64,000 nucleotides of DNA, from contig CAZIWB010000010.1 in assembly GCA_964542655.1 (NCBI GenBank), forward strand, positions 137,533 through 201,532, read 5' to 3'. A program made the translations under genes and the position numbers. Positions 8,126 through 52,211 of the stretch are shown in pieces; positions within the stretch are counted from its first letter, which is position 1, and every line of letters begins with the position of its first letter. Origin of the DNA: an uncultured Cellvibrionaceae bacterium (GTDB lineage Bacteria; Pseudomonadota; Gammaproteobacteria; Pseudomonadales; Cellvibrionaceae). The notes under the pieces were generated by a model that saw only the letters and a program-made list of their open reading frames with translations, was not told where the DNA came from and did not search any database.

Positions 8126-8382
8126 TAAAAATTGTACTTTCTTGTAGTAGGAATCGTTTCAGAAGACCCTTCTTCCTTTTTCACCACAGGTTCAACCACC
8201 ACTGCCTCAATAGAGTCAATGGTAATATACGCCATTTTAGCCATGCCTTCAACATTATTCCATGACATATTTCTTCCATCTTCGTCTTTTTTAAACCCAC
8301 AAAGAGGAATAGTGATGGTATTACCTGATTTAAGATAGAATGTTGCGATTTCAACATCATCAACAGGGTACGTTTTTTCCAT
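8125..8382 (-). CDS. Hypothetical protein (start trimmed to internal Met)
   Basis: The track ORF 8125..8493 overlaps the lipoprotein-like ORF; an internal Met at 8382 removes most of the overlap. Confidence 0.3.
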   Translation of the reverse strand: MEKTYPVDDVEIATFYLKSGNTITIPLCGFKKDEDGRNMSWNNVEGMAKMAYITIDSIEAVVVEPVVKKEEGSSETIPTTRKYNF

Positions 8383-8539
8383 TGATATCTTCCTGTTTAA
8401 CCGCACCAGACGTGAATTGAATATATGAAACACCATCAACACACGTCTTTGCGTATCCTGTCCATTTTGCGGTGGTCCGATCAAGACCACCACAACCGGA
8501 TAGAGCTAGGGCACAAGCCAGAGCTACTACAGCGCGCAT
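8360..8539 (-). CDS. Small putative lipoprotein
   Basis: MRAVVALACALALSGCGG: signal peptide plus an LSGC lipobox. Confidence 0.35.
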   Translation of the reverse strand: MRAVVALACALALSGCGGLDRTTAKWTGYAKTCVDGVSYIQFTSGAVKQEDINGKNVPC

Positions 8540-10297: not shown

Positions 10298-10570
10298 TTA
10301 AAAATCCCCAATTCTATGATAAGGAAAAGATGCGGTCACCACATTAATGAGGAAGTTTTTATCCTCTTGTGGGATGTCTTCTATGTCATTACTATATAAA
10401 AGTTTAGAAAGCCAGTTTGCGACGTGATAACCAATCTCTTCTTTATCAAGATTTTTGGTGCACTCTAGGCACGGAACATCCTCTACAGGAATCCTTTCAC
10501 ATGTGCAACCATAAATTACAACTGGTTCGATAAAAAAGTTGTTTTCGATGATTTCTTTAATACCAGTCAT
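10298..10570 (-). CDS. Hypothetical protein with CxxC...CxxC motif
   Basis: YGCTCERIPVEDVPCLECT suggests a zinc-binding motif. Confidence 0.4.
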   Translation of the reverse strand: MTGIKEIIENNFFIEPVVIYGCTCERIPVEDVPCLECTKNLDKEEIGYHVANWLSKLLYSNDIEDIPQEDKNFLINVVTASFPYHRIGDF

Positions 10571-24121: not shown

Positions 24122-24179
24122 ATTTAATTCCCTTCTGTCTTGTTGATCTACGTATAAGGGATTTAAATCATCCTGTCAA
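24122..24179 (-). promoter_or_regulatory. Promoter/leader cassette copy 5 (TTGACA-17-TATACG; leader with a 1-nt deletion)
   Basis: The -35 overlaps the stop codon of the upstream protease gene. Confidence 0.6.
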
Positions 24180-24736
24180 ATATTATTTTTAAATTTATAT
24201 CCATGAATCCACCTTCCAGAATAGGATAGGGAAGCAATAGGCCTGAAATCGCTATCAGTGCTGGATTCAATGATGCTCTTGTTCATGTTATCAAGAATAT
24301 AAAACTTACCATCGATCTTAACAGCCAATACAGCGTGATACTGGTTCATCGATAGAACCTTACCAACCACGATATAAAGATCATTCCTAGAGAAGCCTAG
24401 GCGGGTTAGAATGTGGTATTTCAGGATAGCATAATCTTCACAATCACCTGTAGCAAGTCTTAGGGTTGTGCTAGGTGTTTGCCATGTATCTACAGGTCCA
24501 TCCAGCTTATATGTGACATAGGTATTAACCCAATCATTTACCAGCTTTATCTTTTCCTGTTTGGATAGGTTAGAATGTTTCTTGAAATTAGAAAATTGTT
24601 CAGGGGAATTTTTAGTGCCTTCCCATCTAGCATCGTAGTTTGTCTTTTTGATTTCTATAGGTACAGAATTGTATATAGCCGGGGTGGCATATACTGGTGT
24701 ACTGATAAGGGCTAGTGCTATTAGAAACCTTTTCAT
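24176..24736 (-). CDS. Secreted transglutaminase-like cysteine protease (BTLCP family), paralog 1
   Basis: Signal peptide MKRFLIALALISTPVYA, then the ATGDCEDYAILKY Cys motif, a later His (QYHAVLAV) and Asp (YILD); same family as 29546..30136. Confidence 0.55.
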   Translation of the reverse strand: MKRFLIALALISTPVYATPAIYNSVPIEIKKTNYDARWEGTKNSPEQFSNFKKHSNLSKQEKIKLVNDWVNTYVTYKLDGPVDTWQTPSTTLRLATGDCEDYAILKYHILTRLGFSRNDLYIVVGKVLSMNQYHAVLAVKIDGKFYILDNMNKSIIESSTDSDFRPIASLSYSGRWIHGYKFKNNI

Positions 24737-25004
24737 AATCCTATTTATAAAAAATGGGGTATGAGACATAAGCCCCATACCCCTTAGTTAATTCAATGAA
24801 ATATAAGATAAATGTTATTCAACATTAAACTTAGAGTTAGTGTTGTGTGATAGGACTTTACTACTTTCCTACCTTCAGCGAGGGTTTCCATCGCCAATCG
24901 CATCACAACATACGACGCCCTTATAGGTCTTTACTATTGTCACACACCCAATAGATAGTGTCCATATATCCTTTTAAGCCCCTATATGGAAGGCTAGTAA
25001 ACTT

Positions 25005-25083
25005 GTTGGTTGCGGGAGCGGGATTTGAACCCGCGACCTTCTGCTTATGAGACAGACGAGCTACCGGACTGCTACTACCCCGC
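25005..25083 (-). tRNA. tRNA-Met/Ile2 (CAT)
   Basis: Acceptor TGCGGGG/TCCCGCA, anticodon arm TCTGT-CTCATAA-GCAGA, T-arm GCGGGTTCAAATCCCGC. Confidence 0.7.
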
Positions 25084-25202
25084 AACAAAATGATATTAAA
25101 AGAGAATAGACAATACTTATGGTGATCTAGGAGGATCGATGAAGTATACAAGAAAATGTTGGAATTTTATGTCTATTCTCATTTAATACCACTTTCGTAG
25201 TA

Positions 25203-25454
25203 TTATTCTTTTATTATCCATTCATCTGGAAATACATTAATATGAATGGCATATCTAAGGTAATTGGATACATTAAGCGATGTATCCTTAGCTTCGTATA
25301 TTACGAGTGCCATAGGTTCAAACGTATTTTGATTTACGTATCTCTCCATGATAAGCGGACTACTAATATCACCCTTAATGATATTCTTTATGTTTTCAAT
25401 TTCTTCAACCGAAGAAATTAATCTGTATGTGTTTTCAATTGTAATGTTATTCAT
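25203..25454 (-). CDS. Hypothetical protein
   Basis: 83 aa ORF. Confidence 0.4.
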   Translation of the reverse strand: MNNITIENTYRLISSVEEIENIKNIIKGDISSPLIMERYVNQNTFEPMALVIYEAKDTSLNVSNYLRYAIHINVFPDEWIIKE

Positions 25455-25889
25455 TATGTTATTCCTATTGTATTTATAAGCGTGAGATTACCGCTTTCTA
25501 TAGGTGCCTTTGAACCGTACCGATTGCCTTGCGAGCATCGTTAATCCTTTATCCACTAATCCCTAAGCCTCTTTGGAAGGCTATCATTGGTAACTAGTAT
25601 AACCTAGTGCTGCCGTTTTTGAAGTCTGGCGTTTGACTTGTCATATACTGCTACTCATCCGTCAATCCTACGTCCACTTTTTAGGGCGATTAAGATTCCG
25701 CTAAGAATCACCGTTATCTTTTCGAATAATCCCTTCAGCCTTGCGAGCATCCGAGAACCACGTTACCTTGCGGCCATGGTATTAAGCACCTTTAACAGTA
25801 TACCGGAACAGACTTTGCGTTTTGATGTGTAAATTGTTTTTAGATAACAATCGCGTCTACCGTTCCGCCACTCCCCCATAAATTTTTAA

Positions 25890-26403
25890 TGGTGGGGGAG
25901 GCAGGATTTGAACCTGCAAATCTGTGTAACCTACCTAGAAGTGCTGTTCCTGTTGCTCCCTTCTCTTTCGAAAAAGGAATACCACACTCCTACTGTCTTT
26001 CGTCTTGCGAACTACTAAACCATTCTTCACGACTTAGGGCACTTAGTGCACCCCTTACCATTTGAATTGCTATCTTGCCTTTTTGCGCGAACAATCAGAC
26101 TCAATAACTACCTATTAACTGTCAGCAATCGTAATATTGGCTTGCGATGACGAAAGCGCCAACTCTCTTAGATACTCACCGATCTAGCTCTGTACCCTAT
26201 CCTTTCGGATCATCACTATTACTTACTACCTATCTCCATTCTACAGAAGACCCTTTCGGGTAGTCTTAGGCTTTTATAGACGGATTGTTATGAGCGAACC
26301 CATAACAACAGGGTATTGTAGGAATATCCCTTTTTCAATGTATTACTACATTTTATCCTAGATTTCGGTAGCAAGCTACCTAGTCAGGGGACTATACTCC
26401 CCT
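25890..26403 (-). ncRNA. Candidate structured RNA (~510 nt) with a tRNA-like 3' end; tmRNA-like, intron-containing tRNA or phage stable RNA
   Basis: ORF-free on both strands. The 3' end has a T-arm GCAGGTTCAAATCCTGC followed by CTCCCCC-A-CCA, which can pair with a 5' AGGGGAG at 26397-26403. There are several GAAA-tetraloop hairpins (ACCCGAAAGGGT, ATCCGAAAGGAT). A hairpin CTCCCCCA/TGGGGGAG lies just beyond the 3' end. Confidence 0.3.
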
Positions 26404-26485
26404 ATTTAACTCTTTTGTTGCTGTCATTATATAGTCTTTTATATCCTATGTCAACAACTATTTTTCAATATTCTGCAATTTATTT

Positions 26486-26562
26486 TGGTAGACGTGGGAG
26501 GAATTGAACCCTCAACCTTGCGATTAAGAATCGCCTGCTCTAACCTATTGAGCTACACGTCC
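26486..26562 (-). tRNA. tRNA, probable Lys (CTT)
   Basis: Acceptor GGACGTG/CACGTCT, D-arm GCTCAATAGGTTAGAGC, loop TTCTTAA, T-arm GAGGGTTCAATTCCTCC. Confidence 0.55.
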
Positions 26563-26571
26563 AAATAATTC

Positions 26572-26646
26572 TGGTGAACCATCTTGGATTCGAACCAAGG
26601 ATCGCGGATTAAAAGCCCGCTGCTTTAGGCCTACTAAGCTAATGGT
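26572..26646 (-). tRNA. tRNA-Lys (TTT)
   Basis: Anticodon arm GCGGG-CTTTTAA-TCCGC, T-arm CTTGGTTCGAATCCAAG. Confidence 0.8.
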
Positions 26647-26981
26647 CCAGTTTCAATCTATATAAACGAAGTGAAATCTAATGTCAACCAAAAGTTTCTT
26701 CTTCGTATATTATTTTCAGTCTATTCCGTTACCAAAGTATTTCATATTGGTATAGCTTATGCCAGTATCGATATTTCATAATACATTGCGGGTCACTTCT
26801 CTTGTGTGCTTTCCGCTTCCATTTCCTGTAGCGGTGATACATATAAGCGTTTCTCATCATGAAACCTTTCAACTAACAAATCAATTCCACTGAAACATTC
26901 TTCAAATGGCTTTACTTGTTTTCCTAACTTGCTGTCTGGATATCTTAAAATATTATCCATCAATAATTCCTTTAATAAAAA

Positions 26982-27057
26982 TGGAGCCGGATATCGGATT
27001 CGAACCGATGACCTACCGCTTACAAGGCGGTTGCTCTAGCCACTGAGCTAATCCGGC
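26982..27057 (-). tRNA. tRNA-Thr (TGT)
   Basis: Acceptor GCCGGAT/ATCCGGC, anticodon arm ACCGC-CTTGTAA-GCGGT, T-arm ATCGGTTCGAATCCGAT. Confidence 0.85.
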
Positions 27058-27064
27058 ATTTCTA

Positions 27065-27358
27065 TTAATCTAACACATCGCCATGTTTACTGTCAAGCAA
27101 TGTATCTTCAATCTTCCAACGAATTACATTATATCCGTTTTCAGTAAGGGTATTTATCGTCTCCGAAAGATCGCCTTTGAAATCTTCTAGGGCGGTCCCT
27201 CTAGCAGAACAGAACCACTTACCATGATAATTATCTACCTGATCTTCGTCAAACTTTGAGCAACGATAGGAAGACGGAACAGTTTCAATGAAATGTTGCC
27301 AATCATCACCAGCATCTACCGTGATATGTGCTTCATAATAAAGCCTTGCGTCACTCAT
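27065..27358 (-). CDS. Hypothetical protein
   Basis: 97 aa ORF. Confidence 0.4.
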   Translation of the reverse strand: MSDARLYYEAHITVDAGDDWQHFIETVPSSYRCSKFDEDQVDNYHGKWFCSARGTALEDFKGDLSETINTLTENGYNVIRWKIEDTLLDSKHGDVLD

Positions 27359-29061: not shown

Positions 29062-29147
29062 TGGTCCTAGGTGTAGGAATCGAACCTACCCGGCCTTTTA
29101 CAGCGATCCGTTATGAGCGGACGGACTCCCCAATCGTCTTACCTAGG
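29062..29147 (-). tRNA. Type II (long variable arm) tRNA with CAT anticodon, atypical
   Basis: Acceptor CCTAGGT/ACCTAGG, D stem GAC/GTC with an 9-nt loop, anticodon arm GTCCG-CTCATAA-CGGAT, 16-nt variable arm CGCTGTAAAAGGCCGG, T-arm GTAGGTTCGATTCCTAC. Confidence 0.5.
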
Positions 29148-29315: not shown

Positions 29316-29564
29316 TTATTCACTCTCACAATCTAAACAAATCCATTCATCTGTTTCTATAGACATTTCGGAAATTTCGTACCACCAACCACAACAAGTA
29401 CACTGGAACGCAAGCGAATCTATTTCTGAACAGAAACTAATATCATTTTCTGCGTGTCCCATATCATGGTCTTCAAGCACTTCATAAAGTGACTTACAGG
29501 AACCCATCAATTCATATGCAATAAATTCAGCGGTTTGATTATATGTCATTTCTTCCAAATCCAA
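29316..29564 (-). CDS. Hypothetical Cys-rich protein
   Basis: 82 aa with FQCTCCGWWYE and ICLDCESE. Confidence 0.4.
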   Translation of the reverse strand: MDLEEMTYNQTAEFIAYELMGSCKSLYEVLEDHDMGHAENDISFCSEIDSLAFQCTCCGWWYEISEMSIETDEWICLDCESE

Positions 29565-30136
29565 GCAGAGGTTGTGTTTAAAGCAACCATGGGAGTGAAG
29601 TTGTAAATAGTAGGATGTGTTACTTCTAATGAGTCATCCTTATTTTCTAGCTTCACAAACTCACTACCAGTATCGGCTATTAGTACTGCATGGCCACCAT
29701 CAATATTCTTGCCAATAGTGACGTAGAGAGATTCAGCGGGAAATCCAGAGGAAACTAACATTTGGTACTTTACTACCACATATTCCTCACAGTCTCCATT
29801 ACCACGCACAAGCGCAGTATCCGCCGTATCCCACTTATCACCTTTAATGTCGGTACGAAACCTAATGTTTTTATTAACCCATGCGTTGATAAGTAGAAGC
29901 TTATCACGGCTATCCATCGATTTTGCCGATGATATTACATCATCCCATTTACCGCGTTCGGTAATCGGCTTTGATATAACCTCATACCATTTTTTACCCC
30001 AATAAAGAGACGGGTCTTTGAATGTTTCTATAGCTTTCTTACCATATATGTTAGGTGTTCTGGATTCCTGTGCAAAGGCATTACCTGCCAGCACCATCGA
30101 AATTGCCCCAATTGCTACTGTAATTTTTTTAAACAT
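29546..30136 (-). CDS. Secreted transglutaminase-like cysteine protease (BTLCP family), paralog 2
   Basis: Signal peptide MFKKITVAIGAISMVLAGNAFA; GNGDCEEYVVVKY; GGHAVLIADTG; paralog of 24176..24736. Confidence 0.55.
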   Translation of the reverse strand: MFKKITVAIGAISMVLAGNAFAQESRTPNIYGKKAIETFKDPSLYWGKKWYEVISKPITERGKWDDVISSAKSMDSRDKLLLINAWVNKNIRFRTDIKGDKWDTADTALVRGNGDCEEYVVVKYQMLVSSGFPAESLYVTIGKNIDGGHAVLIADTGSEFVKLENKDDSLEVTHPTIYNFTPMVALNTTSAWIWKK

Positions 30137-30463
30137 TGCGCGTCTCCTTTCTTGATATATAGATATCATCATTAAAAAGAGAAGTCAACATTTATTTTAT
30201 GAAAAAGTTGCGGGATGTGTTTCTATTTTCCAAAATGAGCGAATAAGGAACACCCTTAGCAACTATATCAAAATTCCCAATCTTTTCGATAACCATATGA
30301 AGTCTTCTTTGACTTACCAGTATCGTCAAGTTTCAAATCCTTAGTTTTATATGAAAATGTGTCATCAGAAACGCGCTGGCCATCAATATAGTAACGATGG
30401 CGATAAAGATTTCCCCATAGGGAACTTGTCATTGTCAGTTTCATAGTATACTCCTAAAAAGGA

Positions 30464-30646: not shown

Positions 30647-31171
30647 TTACTTATTTAGTCTTGTCATCCCGCGCCAAAATCCATCTGGCGCTGGTTCATC
30701 TTTAGGTATTTTCTTGTTAACTATACCGTTAGTATAACATACTAAGTTTGATATAGCAACACTAATGTTTTTCTTATGGTCTTCTTTTTTGGGCTTACCA
30801 ATGTTTCCTTTACCACCCTTGGCGGCAACATTAGAAGCCCTAGAATTCATCTTTCTAGCACCTTCTAAACCATACTTGTTAACCATTTTATCCCATATGG
30901 ATATCTGGCTACCAACACTTGCAGCATCGGCATAATTTTCTTTAGGCGTCCCCCAATATAAATGTTTTGTGTTTGAACACAACTCATTATGACATGCATG
31001 ACAAACATGTATTTTCTTGCCGGATGGTATTGTTGTTTTTAAATGATGTGCCAAAAGACCTTTTAGGTACATGGATTGGCCACCTATATTAATACAATCT
31101 TCAGATAAATCCAAATGAGACTGTCTGTTTTCTTTATCTAATTTTATATAATCTTCTATATCTATGAACAT
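30647..31171 (-). CDS. HNH endonuclease
   Basis: IHVCHACHNELCSNTKHLYWGTPKEN is a classic HNH motif. Confidence 0.55.
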   Translation of the reverse strand: MFIDIEDYIKLDKENRQSHLDLSEDCINIGGQSMYLKGLLAHHLKTTIPSGKKIHVCHACHNELCSNTKHLYWGTPKENYADAASVGSQISIWDKMVNKYGLEGARKMNSRASNVAAKGGKGNIGKPKKEDHKKNISVAISNLVCYTNGIVNKKIPKDEPAPDGFWRGMTRLNK

Positions 31172-31650
31172 AGAAGTATTTAGTAAACTCGTATTTTAGA
31201 AAACCAGCGTGTCTGCCATTCCACCACACCCGCACTATACTTGTATTTAGTCATTGATGCATCAGGATTCTAACCTGCTTTTGGAAGCCCATTTGTTTTA
31301 TGTTGGATTCGAACCAACCACCTAGACCGTATACAGTCTTGCCACATGCACATCAACATTTCTTATCTGTGGAGAGTATTTTAAAGCATATAATAAGGAA
31401 CTCTCTTAACAGATTTAATCAAATTGTGTTTCGTCAATCCATGCTATTGCTAAAGAGATTTCTTCAAAATTCTCCGCAATCGGATCATATTCACCATGTT
31501 CAAACACATCGTAACGATCATCACTTTGAAGGATGATAACATATCCGCGATGATATTTTTGTTTGGTCCGTGCCATGATTAAATCTCCTGTCTCGTTGAA
31601 TTAACTTGTACAGAAGTAATAAAATCATGTCAACTACTATTTTAATTCTC

Positions 31651-31718
31651 GCGACGGCGGGGATCGAACCCGCGATTGCGGCACCACAAGCCGCCGTGTT
31701 ACCTCTACACTACGCCGT
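31651..31718 (-). tRNA. tRNA, probable His (GTG); acceptor top imperfect, CCA not encoded
   Basis: D stem GTGT/ACAC, anticodon arm GCGGC-TTGTGGT-GCCGC, T-arm GCGGGTTCGATCCCCGC. Confidence 0.55.
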
Positions 31719-31726
31719 CATAATAA

Positions 31727-31802
31727 CTGGTGCTTCATGTAGGTACCGCCCCTACCGCCTTTCGCTTATCAGGCGAATGCTCTACTTCTGAGCTAATGAA
31801 GC
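31727..31802 (-). tRNA. tRNA-Ile (GAT) with an aberrant T-loop (GGCGGTA in place of TTCRANY)
   Basis: Perfect acceptor GCTTCAT/ATGAAGC, D-arm GCTCAGAAGTAGAGC, anticodon arm TTCGC-CTGATAA-GCGAA, CCA encoded; the T-stem is GTAGG/CCTAC but the loop is GGCGGTA. Confidence 0.55.
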
Positions 31803-32315: not shown

Positions 32316-32394
32316 TGGCCTCGCAGGAGGGATTCGAACCCCCATCGATCCAATTACGGTGCTACGGTTTAGAAGACCGTTCCGATACTGCGAG
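32316..32394 (-). tRNA. Atypical tRNA-like gene: canonical TCT (Arg) anticodon arm, but the D-arm position is nearly empty and a D-loop-like 20-nt segment sits between the anticodon and T arms
   Basis: RNA: CTCGCAG-TA-TCGGA-ACGGT-CTTCTAA-ACCGT-AGCACCGTAATTGGATCGAT-GGGGGTTCGAATCCCTC-CTGCGAG-G-CCA. Confidence 0.4.
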
Positions 32395-34143: not shown

Positions 34144-34995
34144 ATGAAAAAATTCAGAGATTTTCTAGAGAACCCAAACCCTCCGGTTATTATCTATGCG
34201 TTGCCTACGCATGGGGCGCATTCTGTTGCGCCTACATCTAACCCATTAGATGAAGCTAAGTTTAGCAGCAAAGAAGAATACCATAGAGAAAACGATAATT
34301 CTCACATTGGCAGCCATGATGAAGTTGACAACCATGTTAGCGAAGGTGCTGATAAACATATCGGCAAACTTAAATATGAACAAAAAACTGCCGTCAATGC
34401 ATATTCTACATCATCTTATCATCTTAACCACCATCTCATATCTAAACACACAGGAAAGGAAGATACTGCTAATAAATACTTCGGCAAGGAACACCATGAG
34501 AGATTAGAGGGAATCGACCATCATCTATCTAATGCCATAAAGTCATCCAAACTTAAAAAGGACATGCACTTATATCATGGCACCACGGGTTTCAATCCGG
34601 GTAAAGAGGCCGCTAAACACCCTGAAGGCCATATCAAGCTACCTGCATATACATCCACTACACATGACAAAGTTATAGCTACAGATTTCAGCAATCCAAC
34701 AAAAGTGAAAAGTATGGATAGAGAATCACACATCATAAAAATACATGCGAAGAAAGGCACACACGCATTACACGTTGCCCATCATTCTCGCTTTGAACAT
34801 GAGAAAGAAACCATTATACATAAAAATGCTGTTCTGAAAATTCACAAGAAACCAGATGTCATTGAACATACAATGAAAGAAAGGGATTCTTTGGACAATC
34901 TAACTGGCAAAACCTTTAAAAGAAGAACCTATGTTTGGCACGCACATGTTGTAGATGACGGTACCACTGACAACAAGAAAGAGAAAAAGAAATGA
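34144..34995 (+). CDS. His-rich protein with a T4-type capsid-targeting N-terminus and an ADP-ribosyltransferase-like motif triad (H-G-T / S-T-T / E-x-E)
   Basis: N-terminus MKKFRDFLE (compare T4 MKTYQEFIAE). LYHGTTGF, then AYTSTTHDK about 27 aa later, then EHEKETII about 40 aa after that, which is R/H-S-E ART spacing. A late-promoter-like TATAAATA sits at 34131-34138. Confidence 0.5.
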   Translation: MKKFRDFLENPNPPVIIYALPTHGAHSVAPTSNPLDEAKFSSKEEYHRENDNSHIGSHDEVDNHVSEGADKHIGKLKYEQKTAVNAYSTSSYHLNHHLISKHTGKEDTANKYFGKEHHERLEGIDHHLSNAIKSSKLKKDMHLYHGTTGFNPGKEAAKHPEGHIKLPAYTSTTHDKVIATDFSNPTKVKSMDRESHIIKIHAKKGTHALHVAHHSRFEHEKETIIHKNAVLKIHKKPDVIEHTMKERDSLDNLTGKTFKRRTYVWHAHVVDDGTTDNKKEKKK

Positions 34996-35900
34996 TCAAA
35001 AAATTCAGAGATTTTATTAAACCAGTTCCACCGATTGTCATCACCGCTGTTCCTGTGCATGGTTCACACGCACAAGAGATTGTTAAGCCACCTGTCAAGC
35101 CTACGGTGATCACTGCCGATCCTACACATGGTAAGCATTCAGAACCTAAAGATGTCAATGAAGAAAAATTTGTTAAAGACAAATATATGCTTCATCACGA
35201 AAATGGGCATATTGGTGATGAAGAAACTACACACAAACACGTAGAAGACGAGGCAGATAAGCATATTAATGCGCTTACACAAAAACAGAAAGATGCCGTT
35301 AAATCTTATACTGGACATTCTAGAGATTTAAATCATAATCTTATTGAGAAAGCAAAGGGTAACCATCACTATCTTGATGACGAAACCAATTTCACAAAGC
35401 ACGGCGCAGCTAGAATTAGAGAGACAGAAAAACATCTTGCTAAAGCCATGAAGAAATCCAGAATCAAAAAGGATATTGTTCTATATCACGGCACCAAGGG
35501 GTACAATCCGGGTAAGGAAGCAGCAAAACACCCAGAAGGGCATATCAGACTTCCTTCTTATACGTCTACATCACATCATAAGAAAAATGCATTTAATTTT
35601 GCCGATCCAAGGGCTAGCAAGAAACAATCAAGAGAAACACACATATTAAGGATTCATGCTAAAGCTGGTACACATGCCATCCACGTTTCGCAACACTCGG
35701 AATTTCCCGAAGAAAGAGAAACAATATTACACAAAAATACTGTTTTAAAAATTCACAAGAAACCAGATGTCATTGAACACGAACACGAAGTATATAAACC
35801 CGGACAATGGGATAAGGAAAAGATCAAGAGAAGAACCTACGTTTGGCACGCACATGTGGTAAGCCAGCACCACGATGATGACGATAAATCTGACAAGTAA
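34992..35900 (+). CDS. Paralog of 34144..34995: His-rich, capsid-targeting-like N-terminus, ART-like motifs
   Basis: MIKKFRDFIK; LYHGTKGY, SYTSTSHHK, PEERETIL; many blocks shared with the upstream paralog (HIxxIHAKxGTHAxHV, KIHKKPDVIEH, KRRTYVWHAHVV). Confidence 0.5.
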   Translation: MIKKFRDFIKPVPPIVITAVPVHGSHAQEIVKPPVKPTVITADPTHGKHSEPKDVNEEKFVKDKYMLHHENGHIGDEETTHKHVEDEADKHINALTQKQKDAVKSYTGHSRDLNHNLIEKAKGNHHYLDDETNFTKHGAARIRETEKHLAKAMKKSRIKKDIVLYHGTKGYNPGKEAAKHPEGHIRLPSYTSTSHHKKNAFNFADPRASKKQSRETHILRIHAKAGTHAIHVSQHSEFPEERETILHKNTVLKIHKKPDVIEHEHEVYKPGQWDKEKIKRRTYVWHAHVVSQHHDDDDKSDK

Positions 35901-50794: not shown

Positions 50795-50818
50795 AAAGGG
50801 GGCTTCGGCCCCCTTTTT
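50795..50818. terminator. Strong bidirectional rho-independent terminator
   Basis: AAAGGGGGC-TTCG-GCCCCCTTTTT between g23 (+) and the homing-endonuclease-like gene (-). Confidence 0.75.
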
Positions 50819-52211
50819 ATTGCAATACAAATGTGGCGGTTCCGCTATTCCATATTTTAGGAATATCAAGAATGCCCATTACATCATTCTCTGATAGTGT
50901 ATTATCAAAATCCTTGAATTTATTTTTCATGAATTGTGTCCTAGAAACTCTTTTCTCGCCGTTCACAACATACCAATATGACGGGCGATTTTCTGCTATT
51001 TTAATAAACCCATTCTTAACATATACATCACCGTAAGAATAGCACTTATCCGCGTAAGTGACAATACTGCCTTCATTTAATTTCCTGAAATACTTTAGTA
51101 TCTTACTAAATGACCCAATGACAGATGTATTTAATTTGTTAGCAAATCTGATTAGTTCCCATTCGTAGTTTTTATTAAACCTAGGCTTACCAAAAGTCAT
51201 AACAGAAACCAACTCACCAGAATGATATACACCTATAGATATACTAGATGTCGTATCTCCTTGTATATGGTTGTCATTAAGGAATTGCTTAGCGGTGGTT
51301 CTATCTATAATTTGAACTATACACTTTCTAGCATATATCCGCCTATCAGTAACACCCAAATTATGGGAAATAATAGATTTAATTACCTCTGGTTTGGTTT
51401 TCCAATCATCACTCCATAGATGAAATAATTTAATTCCCTTCTCTTGACATAGAGAAGTTTTATCATAGTGTGACGTTTTTGGTTTAAATTTATCCGTATG
51501 GAAATATACCCCATTATATTCTATAGCATATCCCAATTCAGGAACATAGATATCAATCTCTTTACCTATTATTGATCTATTATTAGTCAATACTTCTTTA
51601 TTGGTAATTGACCGCACAAAATCAAGAATTTCTAATTCCTCTTTCGATACGAAAGATTTTTCTCTTTCATATGAATTGGCTGGCCGCATTTCGATGCCGT
51701 GCTTTCTCATGAAAATGGATAGAGTTGATTTAGAAGTTCCTAATTGTCTCGCAATCAATTCAAGAGTATCACCACTATCATATAGTGTCTGAAGATCATT
51801 CTTATTTTCAAGAATTTTCATAACCTTATATGATGACTGATTGTATTTAACACTAGGAATCCTATGCTTTTCAATCCATTTATTAACAGGGGTGACGGAT
51901 ACCCCTAATTCACCCGCAATGACATCTTTAGACTTGCCTAAATTAATTCTCTGATCATAAAGCCAATCTCTATTACTAAGCTTTTCTAACACCCCTTGTG
52001 GTAGTTTATTCTTACCAGTTTGGTTTCTTTTATTGGCGATAGAAGAAGTTTCCTTGTGACTTCTTCTCTCTATTCCGTGTTCATTTAACCAGTTCCTAAC
52101 AGTAGGATTAGACGTGTTAAATTCTCGCGCCAAAGCACTTATAGAATAGCACTGGTCGATATACAAAGATAACAACACATCCCTGCTAGGAACTTTAATT
52201 TTATTAGCCAT
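50817..52211 (-). CDS. Homing-endonuclease-like protein: three tandem HTH modules plus a Vsr/DUF559-like nuclease motif (paralog of 1..1165)
   Basis: Three repeats of xxxxIAxELxxSxxTVxxWxxKHxI; EIDIYVPELGYAIEYNGVYFH; C-terminal RIYARKCIVQ...NHIQG. Inserted right after g23, where T4 has a freestanding homing endonuclease. Confidence 0.5.
   Translation of the reverse strand: MANKIKVPSRDVLLSLYIDQCYSISALAREFNTSNPTVRNWLNEHGIERRSHKETSSIANKRNQTGKNKLPQGVLEKLSNRDWLYDQRINLGKSKDVIAGELGVSVTPVNKWIEKHRIPSVKYNQSSYKVMKILENKNDLQTLYDSGDTLELIARQLGTSKSTLSIFMRKHGIEMRPANSYEREKSFVSKEELEILDFVRSITNKEVLTNNRSIIGKEIDIYVPELGYAIEYNGVYFHTDKFKPKTSHYDKTSLCQEKGIKLFHLWSDDWKTKPEVIKSIISHNLGVTDRRIYARKCIVQIIDRTTAKQFLNDNHIQGDTTSSISIGVYHSGELVSVMTFGKPRFNKNYEWELIRFANKLNTSVIGSFSKILKYFRKLNEGSIVTYADKCYSYGDVYVKNGFIKIAENRPSYWYVVNGEKRVSRTQFMKNKFKDFDNTLSENDVMGILDIPKIWNSGTATFVLQ

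Follow-up and report, generated by a model that had tools for sequence, protein, structure and literature searches.

A circularly permuted tRNA-like domain in the linker of a GOLLD RNA from a T4-like phage tRNA island

We analysed a 64,000-nucleotide (nt) stretch of DNA deposited with an uncultured Cellvibrionaceae bacterium (hereafter the window, to which positions refer unless another locus is named) and found that a gene-free kilobase within it is one non-coding minus-strand RNA of ~940 nt. The RNA is of the known GOLLD family, comes from a T4-like myovirus and is encoded inside a phage transfer RNA (tRNA) island; its variable linker is occupied by a tRNA-like domain that is circularly permuted and of the tRNA-Leu type. 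The kilobase had first been singled out from its letters as a candidate large structured RNA (hereafter the original prediction). That much is borne out by a full-length GOLLD match far from chance, and the sequence elements listed at the time all lie at, or within 3 nt of, the places given for them; the permuted order of the two tRNA halves was missed.

The family assignment rests on a search of the window with all 4227 Rfam families, in which the one match other than tRNAs was GOLLD (RF02032; 155.6 bits, E = 1e-41, model positions 1-416 of 416, not truncated), a family reportedly described by Weinberg et al. in 2009. An Infernal/Rfam search had been proposed in the original prediction and proved to be the right test, returning GOLLD, a family which that prediction had not named, and no transfer-messenger RNA (tmRNA), Intron_gpI or RNaseP; the ARAGORN tmRNA search proposed alongside it gave 20 tRNAs and no tmRNA in the window. 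A permissive Rfam scan of 25300-26600 yielded nothing further at threshold, and no tmRNA, group I intron or RNase P. The 3' domain of the window RNA aligns with 15 other GOLLDs, and lengthwise with that of the GOLLD at one comparative locus (L017), and its 5' domain shares conserved blocks with the GOLLDs of L017 and L164, among them both of the GAAA-tetraloop hairpins that had been picked out earlier and are indeed present. Internal repeats that had likewise been reported, CCTTGCGAGCATC on the plus strand at 25527-25539 and 25739-25751, turned out to be the GCAA-tetraloop hairpin motif of the GOLLD 3' domain, and CUCGCAAGG also occurs in the L017 GOLLD at both aligned places. Size and layout are those of the family, with a conserved 3' domain, a less conserved 5' domain, a variable linker and a length of ~940 nt when the 5' end is placed from the promoter. 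So is the setting, with T4-like structural genes and 20-22 same-strand tRNA genes around the locus.

The extent of the RNA was judged from its promoter and from homology upstream of the Rfam match. A sigma-70-type promoter (TTGACA, 17 nt, TATAAT) lies between a tRNA-Lys(CUU) gene and the conserved RNA and is the sole 12/12 site in 24800-27200. Because the region that follows it is homologous to the regions upstream of other GOLLDs, we read the ~940 nt from promoter to model end as a single RNA, consisting of GOLLD and its variable 5' domain, which would be made from this strong promoter of its own. The statement that no open reading frame (ORF) of at least 60 amino acids (aa) occurs on either strand needs correction, as there is a TTG-initiated ORF of 64 aa on the plus strand (25638-25832), antisense to the conserved RNA; nothing marks it as a gene, and the region is without a credible one. 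Downstream of the GOLLD RNA we looked for an intrinsic terminator and found none. An 83-aa ORF (25203-25454, minus strand) starts 25 nt past the GOLLD 3' end with AGGA ahead of its ATG and has no Pfam match; since no terminator stands between them, it may be co-transcribed with GOLLD.

Within the linker, the elements of a tRNA occur in the order T-arm, 3' acceptor strand, A-CCA, spacer, 5' acceptor strand, U8-G9, D-arm and anticodon hairpin, giving a cloverleaf whose opening lies in the variable region and whose acceptor stem is closed by a loop starting with A-CCA (Table 1). The T-arm GCAGGTTCAAATCCTGC and the CTCCCCC-A-CCA at 25900-25890, both recognised in the original prediction, are present, and the tRNA-like CCA element is genuine. 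The acceptor partner had been sought ~510 nt upstream in AGGGGAG. That motif exists (26403-26397, minus strand) but is half of a local hairpin; it is GGGGGAG, 12 nt downstream of the CCA, that pairs with the 3' acceptor strand, at 7/7 positions. Neither ARAGORN nor Rfam calls a tRNA between 25479 and 26485 as the sequence stands. With the halves rejoined in silico, ARAGORN calls a tRNA in 168/168 junction variants, and the minimum free energy fold of 25917-25833 alone consists of exactly the four helices (z = -2.35). Measured against a canonical tRNA, the contiguous cloverleaf is absent, the four helices and the tertiary nucleotides are there after rejoining, and the conserved anticodon arm of 5 base pairs (bp) and 7 nt is not. 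The D-arm resembles that of the class II tRNA-Leu(UAA) of the window. As a whole, the unit resembles the tRNAs of its genome at no more than background level and so did not arise as a recent copy of one of them. Two copies of a direct repeat, TTACACA, bracket the unit, and L017 and L164 have just the related ACA..AG / ACACUU at these places; the pair may be due to chance or may be a recombination scar of cargo exchange.

To place the domain in context we turned to environmental sequences, because a blastn search ('distant' settings) with the 1.1-kb locus found nothing that matched it among 50,697 deposited phage genomes and hence no close cultured relative. Comparative loci were drawn from IMG/VR, where GOLLD loci were gathered by a 3'-end motif, and from metagenome pattern scans; the permuted architecture was sought with scripts, targeted patterns and a covariance model. 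Below about 35-40 bits the covariance-model search was swamped by tandem-tRNA junctions, and only matches without flanking ARAGORN tRNAs were accepted. Besides the window, three distinct GOLLDs carry the permuted order in the same linker slot: L017 (L110 is identical; GOLLD score 198.8 bits), L164 (188.5 bits) and L179 (92.8 bits, E = 2e-23, full model). The acceptor stems of the GOLLD units all pair at 7/7 positions and include CUCCCCC/GGGGGAG, ACUCCCC/GGGGAGU and CUCUCCC/GGGAGAG.

Two further candidates were not accepted as GOLLD-embedded. L173 has a permuted unit (acceptor CCUGCCC/GGGCAGG) and a GOLLD-like downstream motif, but it has no GOLLD match and ORFs occupy the expected place of the 3' domain; the unit of L116 lies ~1 kb downstream of that contig's GOLLD and is not a fifth embedded case. 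An anchor-based scan of IMG/VR in which CCA was not required found no additional GOLLD-embedded permuted units. An acceptor-specific pattern applied to metagenomes and genomes returned mostly chance matches without a T-arm; the real ones were L133, L137/L145 and L151, none of them in a GOLLD.

Seven units were aligned, registered by hand on their structure. Standard pairs fill 140/140 cells, 14 of the 20 pairs are changed on both sides and none is broken, and sliding the partner columns by 1-3 positions lowers pairing to 41-55%. RNAalifold independently returned the same four helices from the seven units. The equivalents of U8, A14, G18-G19, A21, G53, T54-Psi55-C56 and A58 are invariant, as is the G at +1. 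The base ahead of the T-stem, read directly, is U in 7/7 units and faces A15 in 6/7, which we take to be a Levitt pair of the kind present in E. coli tRNA-Leu. The 'anticodon' triplet, by comparison, differs in every homologue (CUA in the window, then CUU, GAU, UUG and GUU).

Permuted cargo is one of two designs found in the GOLLD linker. Among 19 distinct GOLLDs sampled without bias, with linkers delimited by an nhmmer profile, the slot holds a normal-order tRNA in 10, a permuted unit in 1 and neither in 8. Normal-order linker tRNAs run from directly after a conserved GGUAGGU to just ahead of AAAGCGAAAG, and the permuted unit is bounded by the same landmarks. The ten comprise L055:2666-2738, L025:2292-2364(-), L038, L106, L120, L099, L060, L076, L088 and L015; their acceptor stems are A/U-rich and mismatched, and several have the 5' strand UCGCAAA right after GGUAGGU. 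None of the ten encodes CCA, and their acceptor stems average 4.5 Watson-Crick pairs of 7 and 0.7 G-C pairs, compared to 72/86 with encoded CCA, 5.6 of 7 and 3.8 for free-standing tRNAs on the same contigs. For the GOLLD-type permuted units (the four GOLLDs and L173) the values are 5/5, 7.0 of 7 and 5.6. The normal-order linker tRNAs look like non-releasable pseudo-tRNAs. The window RNA is like other GOLLDs in its full-length covariance-model match, conserved 3' domain, variable 5' domain and variable linker, in its length of over 800 nt, in its place within a phage tRNA array and in having tRNA-like linker cargo, as about half of the sampled GOLLDs do. In contrast to the linker tRNAs described or sampled, which are in normal order and, in our sample, have weak stems and no CCA, its cargo is permuted, has a strong acceptor stem and encodes CCA.

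The CCA itself appears to be under constraint. An architecture scan that did not require it found 12 permuted units outside tandem-tRNA junctions (6 of them ascertained without CCA in the search pattern), and N-CCA follows directly after the 7-nt strand in 12/12, while the remainder of the capping loop differs between units, both in its sequence and in its length (3 to 12 nt). Ancestry may contribute to this, but invariance beside a freely drifting spacer argues for selection. The two designs also differ in topology: by the order of their parts, normal-order cargo is tied to GOLLD by its acceptor end and permuted cargo by its variable region, which is the site of the long extra arm in class II tRNAs such as tRNA-Leu. 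Permuted cargo is therefore held by its core, with the acceptor end and the anticodon hairpin free and facing away from the attachment.

Table 1. Features of the GOLLD locus and of its permuted tRNA-like domain (window positions).
Feature	Position	Strand	Basis or remark
Sigma-70-type promoter	26426..26454	-	12/12 match; implied transcript start near 26419
Whole GOLLD RNA, ~940 nt	25479..26419	-	5' end placed from promoter; 3' end is Rfam model end
GOLLD 5' (variable) domain, ~430 nt	25993..26419	-	Alignment with L017 and L164 GOLLD 5' domains
Local hairpin AGGGGA-GUAUAG-UCCCCU	26406-26383	-	In GOLLD 5' domain
GAAA-tetraloop hairpin ACCC-GAAA-GGGT	26261-26250	-	Motif reading
GAAA-tetraloop hairpin ATCC-GAAA-GGAT	26210-26199	-	Motif reading
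Rfam GOLLD region (hairpin, variable linker, conserved 3' domain)	25479..25992	-	RF02032 model positions 1-416
Direct repeat TTACACA, two copies bracketing permuted unit	25929-25923 (before T-arm), 25826..25832 (after anticodon hairpin)	-	Motif reading
Circularly permuted tRNA-like domain, GOLLD linker	25833..25917	-	Covariance model 85 bits, E 1e-18; fold; rejoined halves
T-arm GCAGG-UUCAAAU-CCUGC (GCAGGTTCAAATCCTGC)	25901..25917	-	Motif, fold; stem covaries in homologues
3' acceptor strand CUCCCCC, discriminator A, CCA	25900-25894, 25893, 25892-25890	-	Motif reading
Spacer UUAAAAAUUUAU, variable part of acceptor-capping loop, 12 nt	25878..25889	-	Predicted RNase P site at 3' end, 25878/25877
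5' acceptor strand GGGGGAG	25871..25877	-	7/7 Watson-Crick with 25900-25894
U8-G9 and Leu-type D-arm GCG-GAACGGUAGA-CGC, with A14, G18-G19, A21	25853..25870	-	Sequence comparison
Anticodon-like hairpin AUUGUU-AUCUAAA-AACAAU, 'anticodon' CUA 25843-25841	25833..25851	-	Fold; stem covaries
Conserved GOLLD 3' domain	25479..25821	-	Within Rfam match; nhmmer profile of 3' domains, E 2.4e-84
GAUGCUCGCAAGG, GCAA-tetraloop hairpin motif of 3' domain, two copies	25527..25539 and 25751-25739	-	Rfam match and motif reading

Structures solved by cryo-electron microscopy provide the frame in which such cargo can be interpreted. In the work of Kretsch et al. 2025 (PMC12286853) the 5' and 3' regions of GOLLD are separate domains and the linker, which was not resolved, lies inside a 14-mer cage; homo-oligomeric nanocages are documented for the env-38 and S. 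agalactiae 3' domain GOLLDs (PMC12286853, PMC12990946). A Mycolicibacterium GOLLD has a tRNA-Phe in J13/15 that points inward (review, PMC12990946). By homology with these RNAs, the window GOLLD would assemble into a multimeric RNA cage with the variable linker facing the interior.

The overall reading we favour, although we give it no better than an even chance, is a GOLLD whose permuted tRNA-like cargo is cleaved by RNase P to leave two pieces. RNase P would read the stacked T-arm and 7-bp acceptor stem and cut before G+1 (25877), a step whose chances we put at about half, and 3' trimming would halt at the encoded CCA (25890). The product would be a two-piece GOLLD, with a 5' piece of ~529 nt ending in ...CUCCCCC-A-CCA-3'OH (CUCCCCCACCA-3') and a 3' piece of 399 nt beginning with pGGGGGAG. 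The tRNA fold itself would keep the pieces together, and each protomer would show a free, possibly chargeable CCA end; to judge from A73 and the Leu-type D-arm, Leu would be the first candidate for such charging. A stable RNA of ~0.5 kb, as expected in the original prediction, would coincide with the predicted 529-nt piece. A cut by RNase P followed by trimming at the CCA would require both the strong acceptor stem and the CCA, and the weak, CCA-less stems of normal-order cargo would make sense because a cut there would sever the RNA.

We infer cleavage by RNase P because two systems offer a precedent for such processing. YrlA of M. smegmatis has the order T-arm, acceptor stem-loop, D-arm with a 7-bp stem. 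RNase P cuts it both in vitro and in vivo, leaving an upstream half with a CCA end, and the two halves remain together (PMC4201824). YrlA RNAs with shorter stems are not cut, and Chen et al. 2014 link the 7-bp stem to RNase P cleavage (PMC4201824). Permuted tmRNA genes are also processed to two pieces (PMC10085705).

Several points weigh against this interpretation. For the window, as for any permuted GOLLD, cleavage is purely what we infer, and the capping loops of L179, L173 and L137 are 7-8 nt long, which may make a poor RNase P substrate and would also fit an uncleaved mimic. The GOLLD score of the window RNA is just 5.6 bits over the gathering score of 150. The covariation draws on few sequences, with just four distinct permuted-unit GOLLDs found, and some members of the alignment were selected in part by their acceptor pairing, although not by pairing of the D and anticodon stems. 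Since 19 of the 20 ordinary tRNA genes of the window phage encode CCA, the CCA signal could be partly ancestry. A low-resolution neighbour-joining tree of 3' domains intersperses the permuted-bearing GOLLDs, which form no clean clade, so a single such clade is unsupported. The anticodon-like stem of 6 bp in the window, together with anticodon loops of 8 nt in 2/7 units, argues against a decoding role.

The main alternative, which we think less probable, keeps the same permuted fold and supposes that it is never cleaved, the capped acceptor stem making a permanently tethered tRNA mimic like the YrlA of S. Typhimurium. With its CCA read within the loop, such a mimic would bind a tRNA-recognising partner inside the cage or on the opened cage; candidates include modification enzymes, EF-Tu, synthetases, RNase P, ribosomes and, with the mimic as a decoy, host anticodon nucleases. 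The short capping loops just mentioned fit this alternative better, and S. Typhimurium YrlA and D. radiodurans Yrn1 are uncut yet functional tRNA mimics (PMC4201824). The normal-order linker tRNAs, with weak acceptor stems and no CCA, also look unreleasable, the element embedded in a mycobacterial GOLLD, termed a pseudo-tRNA, was not detectable as a separate RNA (PMC6582537), and storage in the cage has been put forward as an idea for GOLLD (PMC12990946). What speaks against a permanently closed mimic is the invariant N-CCA right after a perfect 7-bp stem, as would be required of a processed 3' end, whereas no role is known for it within a loop, together with the stem length that Chen et al. 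tie to cleavage (PMC4201824) and the invariant G at +1.

We consider it improbable that the permuted unit is a neutral scar, left when a linker tRNA was duplicated in tandem or recombined and its outer halves were lost, and we disfavour this explanation. The TTACACA repeat that brackets the unit, the varied linker cargo of GOLLDs (normal tRNA, none or permuted) and the interspersed position of permuted-bearing GOLLDs on the tree are what such a history might leave. A unit with no function of its own would not, however, be expected to keep four helices with 14 compensatory pairs and 0 broken across 3' domains that are about 57-66% identical, nor universal tertiary nucleotides that are all invariant. 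Its acceptor stems are better than those of free tRNAs, it is unlike any tRNA of its own genome and the same architecture recurs outside GOLLD.

Less probable still is a permuted tRNA gene that would give, by circularisation and re-opening, a free amber-suppressor tRNA (CUA) for recoding of phage stop codons. ARAGORN does read the rejoined halves as a tRNA(CUA), and TAG is the rarest stop among long ORFs (3/83). The ends to be joined are GOLLD domains of roughly 500 and 350 nt, not a short bulge-helix-bulge junction, and recoding of TAG extends ORFs no more than recoding of TGA or TAA. Bacteria are not known to have the splicing endonuclease pathway that serves permuted tRNAs in algae and archaea. 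Because the anticodon varies among homologues and the window has no specific sign of TAG recoding, we rejected this explanation and regard the CUA as incidental.

The classes proposed at the outset are refuted, both the tmRNA-like RNA bearing a tag frame and the tRNA that a group I-like intron would interrupt, leaving the acceptor partner 510 nt upstream: GNRA hairpins are present and the T-arm-acceptor-CCA-loop-acceptor part gives a weak permuted-tmRNA match (26.7 bits against a threshold of 47, model positions 36-93 only, tRNA-like part alone), but ARAGORN finds no tmRNA, no tmRNA family reaches threshold, no group I intron appears even at E<=1, the suggested distal partner pairs locally, the tag-like frame (ANITIADS followed by two stops, present at 26141-26112) is not conserved in L017 or L164, and GOLLD accounts for the whole region, which leaves no need for a T4 species-1/2-type RNA.

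Returning to the favoured GOLLD with RNase P-cleaved permuted cargo, its arrangement resembles three known systems and differs from each. It shares with YrlA Y RNAs (RF02553; Chen et al. 2014, PMC4201824) the order of T-arm, acceptor stem-loop and D-arm and the tRNA tertiary nucleotides, and YrlA, like the GOLLD module, also occurs in phages. In YrlA, an RNA of about 100-150 nt whose gene usually adjoins an rsr (Ro60) gene, the opening is at the anticodon stem, which runs into a Ro60-binding helix; in the GOLLD module, part of an RNA of 940 nt, it is at the variable region, and a local anticodon hairpin is retained. The CCA is encoded in the window, whereas in M. smegmatis YrlA a CA is added. 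No RF02553 match at E<=1 was found in the 25300-26600 scan, and a non-exhaustive scan of 20 window ORFs gave no TROVE/Ro60 domain.

Two-piece tmRNA, known from alpha-proteobacteria, cyanobacteria and some phages (RF01849/RF04321) and reportedly the subject of Keiler et al. in 2000, has the same succession of T-arm, 3' acceptor, CCA, loop and 5' acceptor; its loop is excised, and two RNAs are joined by the acceptor stem. The window domain has a full D-arm and an anticodon hairpin and, unlike two-piece tmRNA, neither a conserved tag frame nor tmRNA pseudoknots. The permuted tRNA genes of algae (Cyanidioschyzon), which Soma et al. are said to have reported in 2007, and those of Thermofilum likewise encode the 3' half upstream of the 5' half; a bulge-helix-bulge junction serves to circularise their transcripts, which are then re-opened and yield a standard free tRNA. 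The window RNA departs from this in that two large GOLLD domains make up the 'junction', in coming from a bacteriophage, in its encoded CCA and in an anticodon that varies among homologues. Algal and archaeal permuted tRNA genes have been reviewed (PMC3978253).

Permuted units that likewise have a capped acceptor stem and N-CCA also stand outside GOLLD, in phage tRNA islands and on contigs of metagenome-assembled genomes. We found them at L164:4725-4803 and 10458-10533, at L116:1631-1713, at L133:971-1051 and 1134-1215 (two adjacent units 80 nt apart), near 3560 in L155, at L137:4803-4878(-), which equals L145:2972-3047, and at L151:120-199, where the fold is YrlA-like and RF02553 matches weakly (31.5 bits). 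ARAGORN calls no tRNA at any of these stand-alone units. A local anticodon hairpin is kept in L137 and in the first L133 unit; those without one are probably YrlA-like, and the stand-alone units may form an under-annotated class. L017 also encodes a permuted two-piece tmRNA (8196-8535, plus strand; alpha_tmRNA 150.3 bits, tmRNA_permuted (RF04321) 123.8 bits) in the same tRNA island as its permuted-cargo GOLLD, so that one phage has two RNAs with a CCA-first tRNA-like domain.

A far-reaching version of the favoured reading, which we think unlikely, would take these likenesses as a common principle. Cages with permuted cargo would be built from two-piece protomers made by RNase P, each with a free tRNA-Leu-like CCA-3'OH that a host synthetase could charge, and ten or more tethered ends would face each cage lumen. 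During T4-like infection the cage would then serve as an RNA compartment in which translation or tRNA-targeting factors (synthetase, EF-Tu, ribosomes or anticodon nucleases) are captured or sequestered. Permuted modules with capped acceptors and encoded CCA would then be a general, unrecognised class of phage tRNA islands that includes YrlA, two-piece tmRNA and GOLLD cargo.

The remaining content of the window is that of a T4-like myovirus, with genes for Gp23 capsid, Gp20 portal, scaffold, sheath, UvsW and T4-type terminase, and its sheath protein is <50% identical to those of the nearest deposited phages. In addition to the 20 tRNAs called by ARAGORN, the Rfam tRNA model adds 31731-31802 (minus strand, 54.9 bits) and 32319-32394 (minus strand, 38.8 bits). 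An 86-nt 'tRNA-Met' called by ARAGORN at 29062-29147 has no Rfam tRNA match at threshold, and tRNA-His (31648-31720, minus strand) is the sole one of the 20 without an encoded CCA. Among the tRNA genes are two paralogous transglutaminase-like cysteine protease genes (BTLCP / Peptidase_C93; 24176-24778 and 29546-30172, both minus strand), one of which lies ~0.4 kb downstream of the 83-aa ORF next to GOLLD, and an ORF with a weak HNH / His-Me endonuclease match between tRNA genes (30647-31171, minus strand). Two tandem ADP-ribosyltransferase genes (ADPrib_exo_Tox; 34144-35900, plus strand) mark the edge of the tRNA island, and beside the capsid gene, at 50817-52211 (minus strand), is a gene for a protein with several helix-turn-helix domains and a Mom-like domain.

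The GOLLD family was already known; what seems new, as we found no report of either in the searchable literature, is the permuted tRNA-like cargo and the contrast between two cargo designs. GOLLD RNAs are among the largest structured RNAs of bacteria and phages and form huge RNA-only cages, and their function has been open since 2009. Since nothing but the linker cargo points into the cage, knowing what this cargo is offers the best approach to that function. One design is in normal order and seemingly unreleasable, and the other is permuted and could be cleaved without leaving the RNA; both suggest that the cargo stays tethered. Our results extend the permuted tRNA-like principle of YrlA and two-piece tmRNA to a third, unrelated class of RNA and to T4-like phages, in elements that tRNA finders miss. 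They also turn a vague idea of 'tRNA storage' into one that can be tested, at a defined RNase P bond, through two fragment sizes and through charging of a tethered CCA end.

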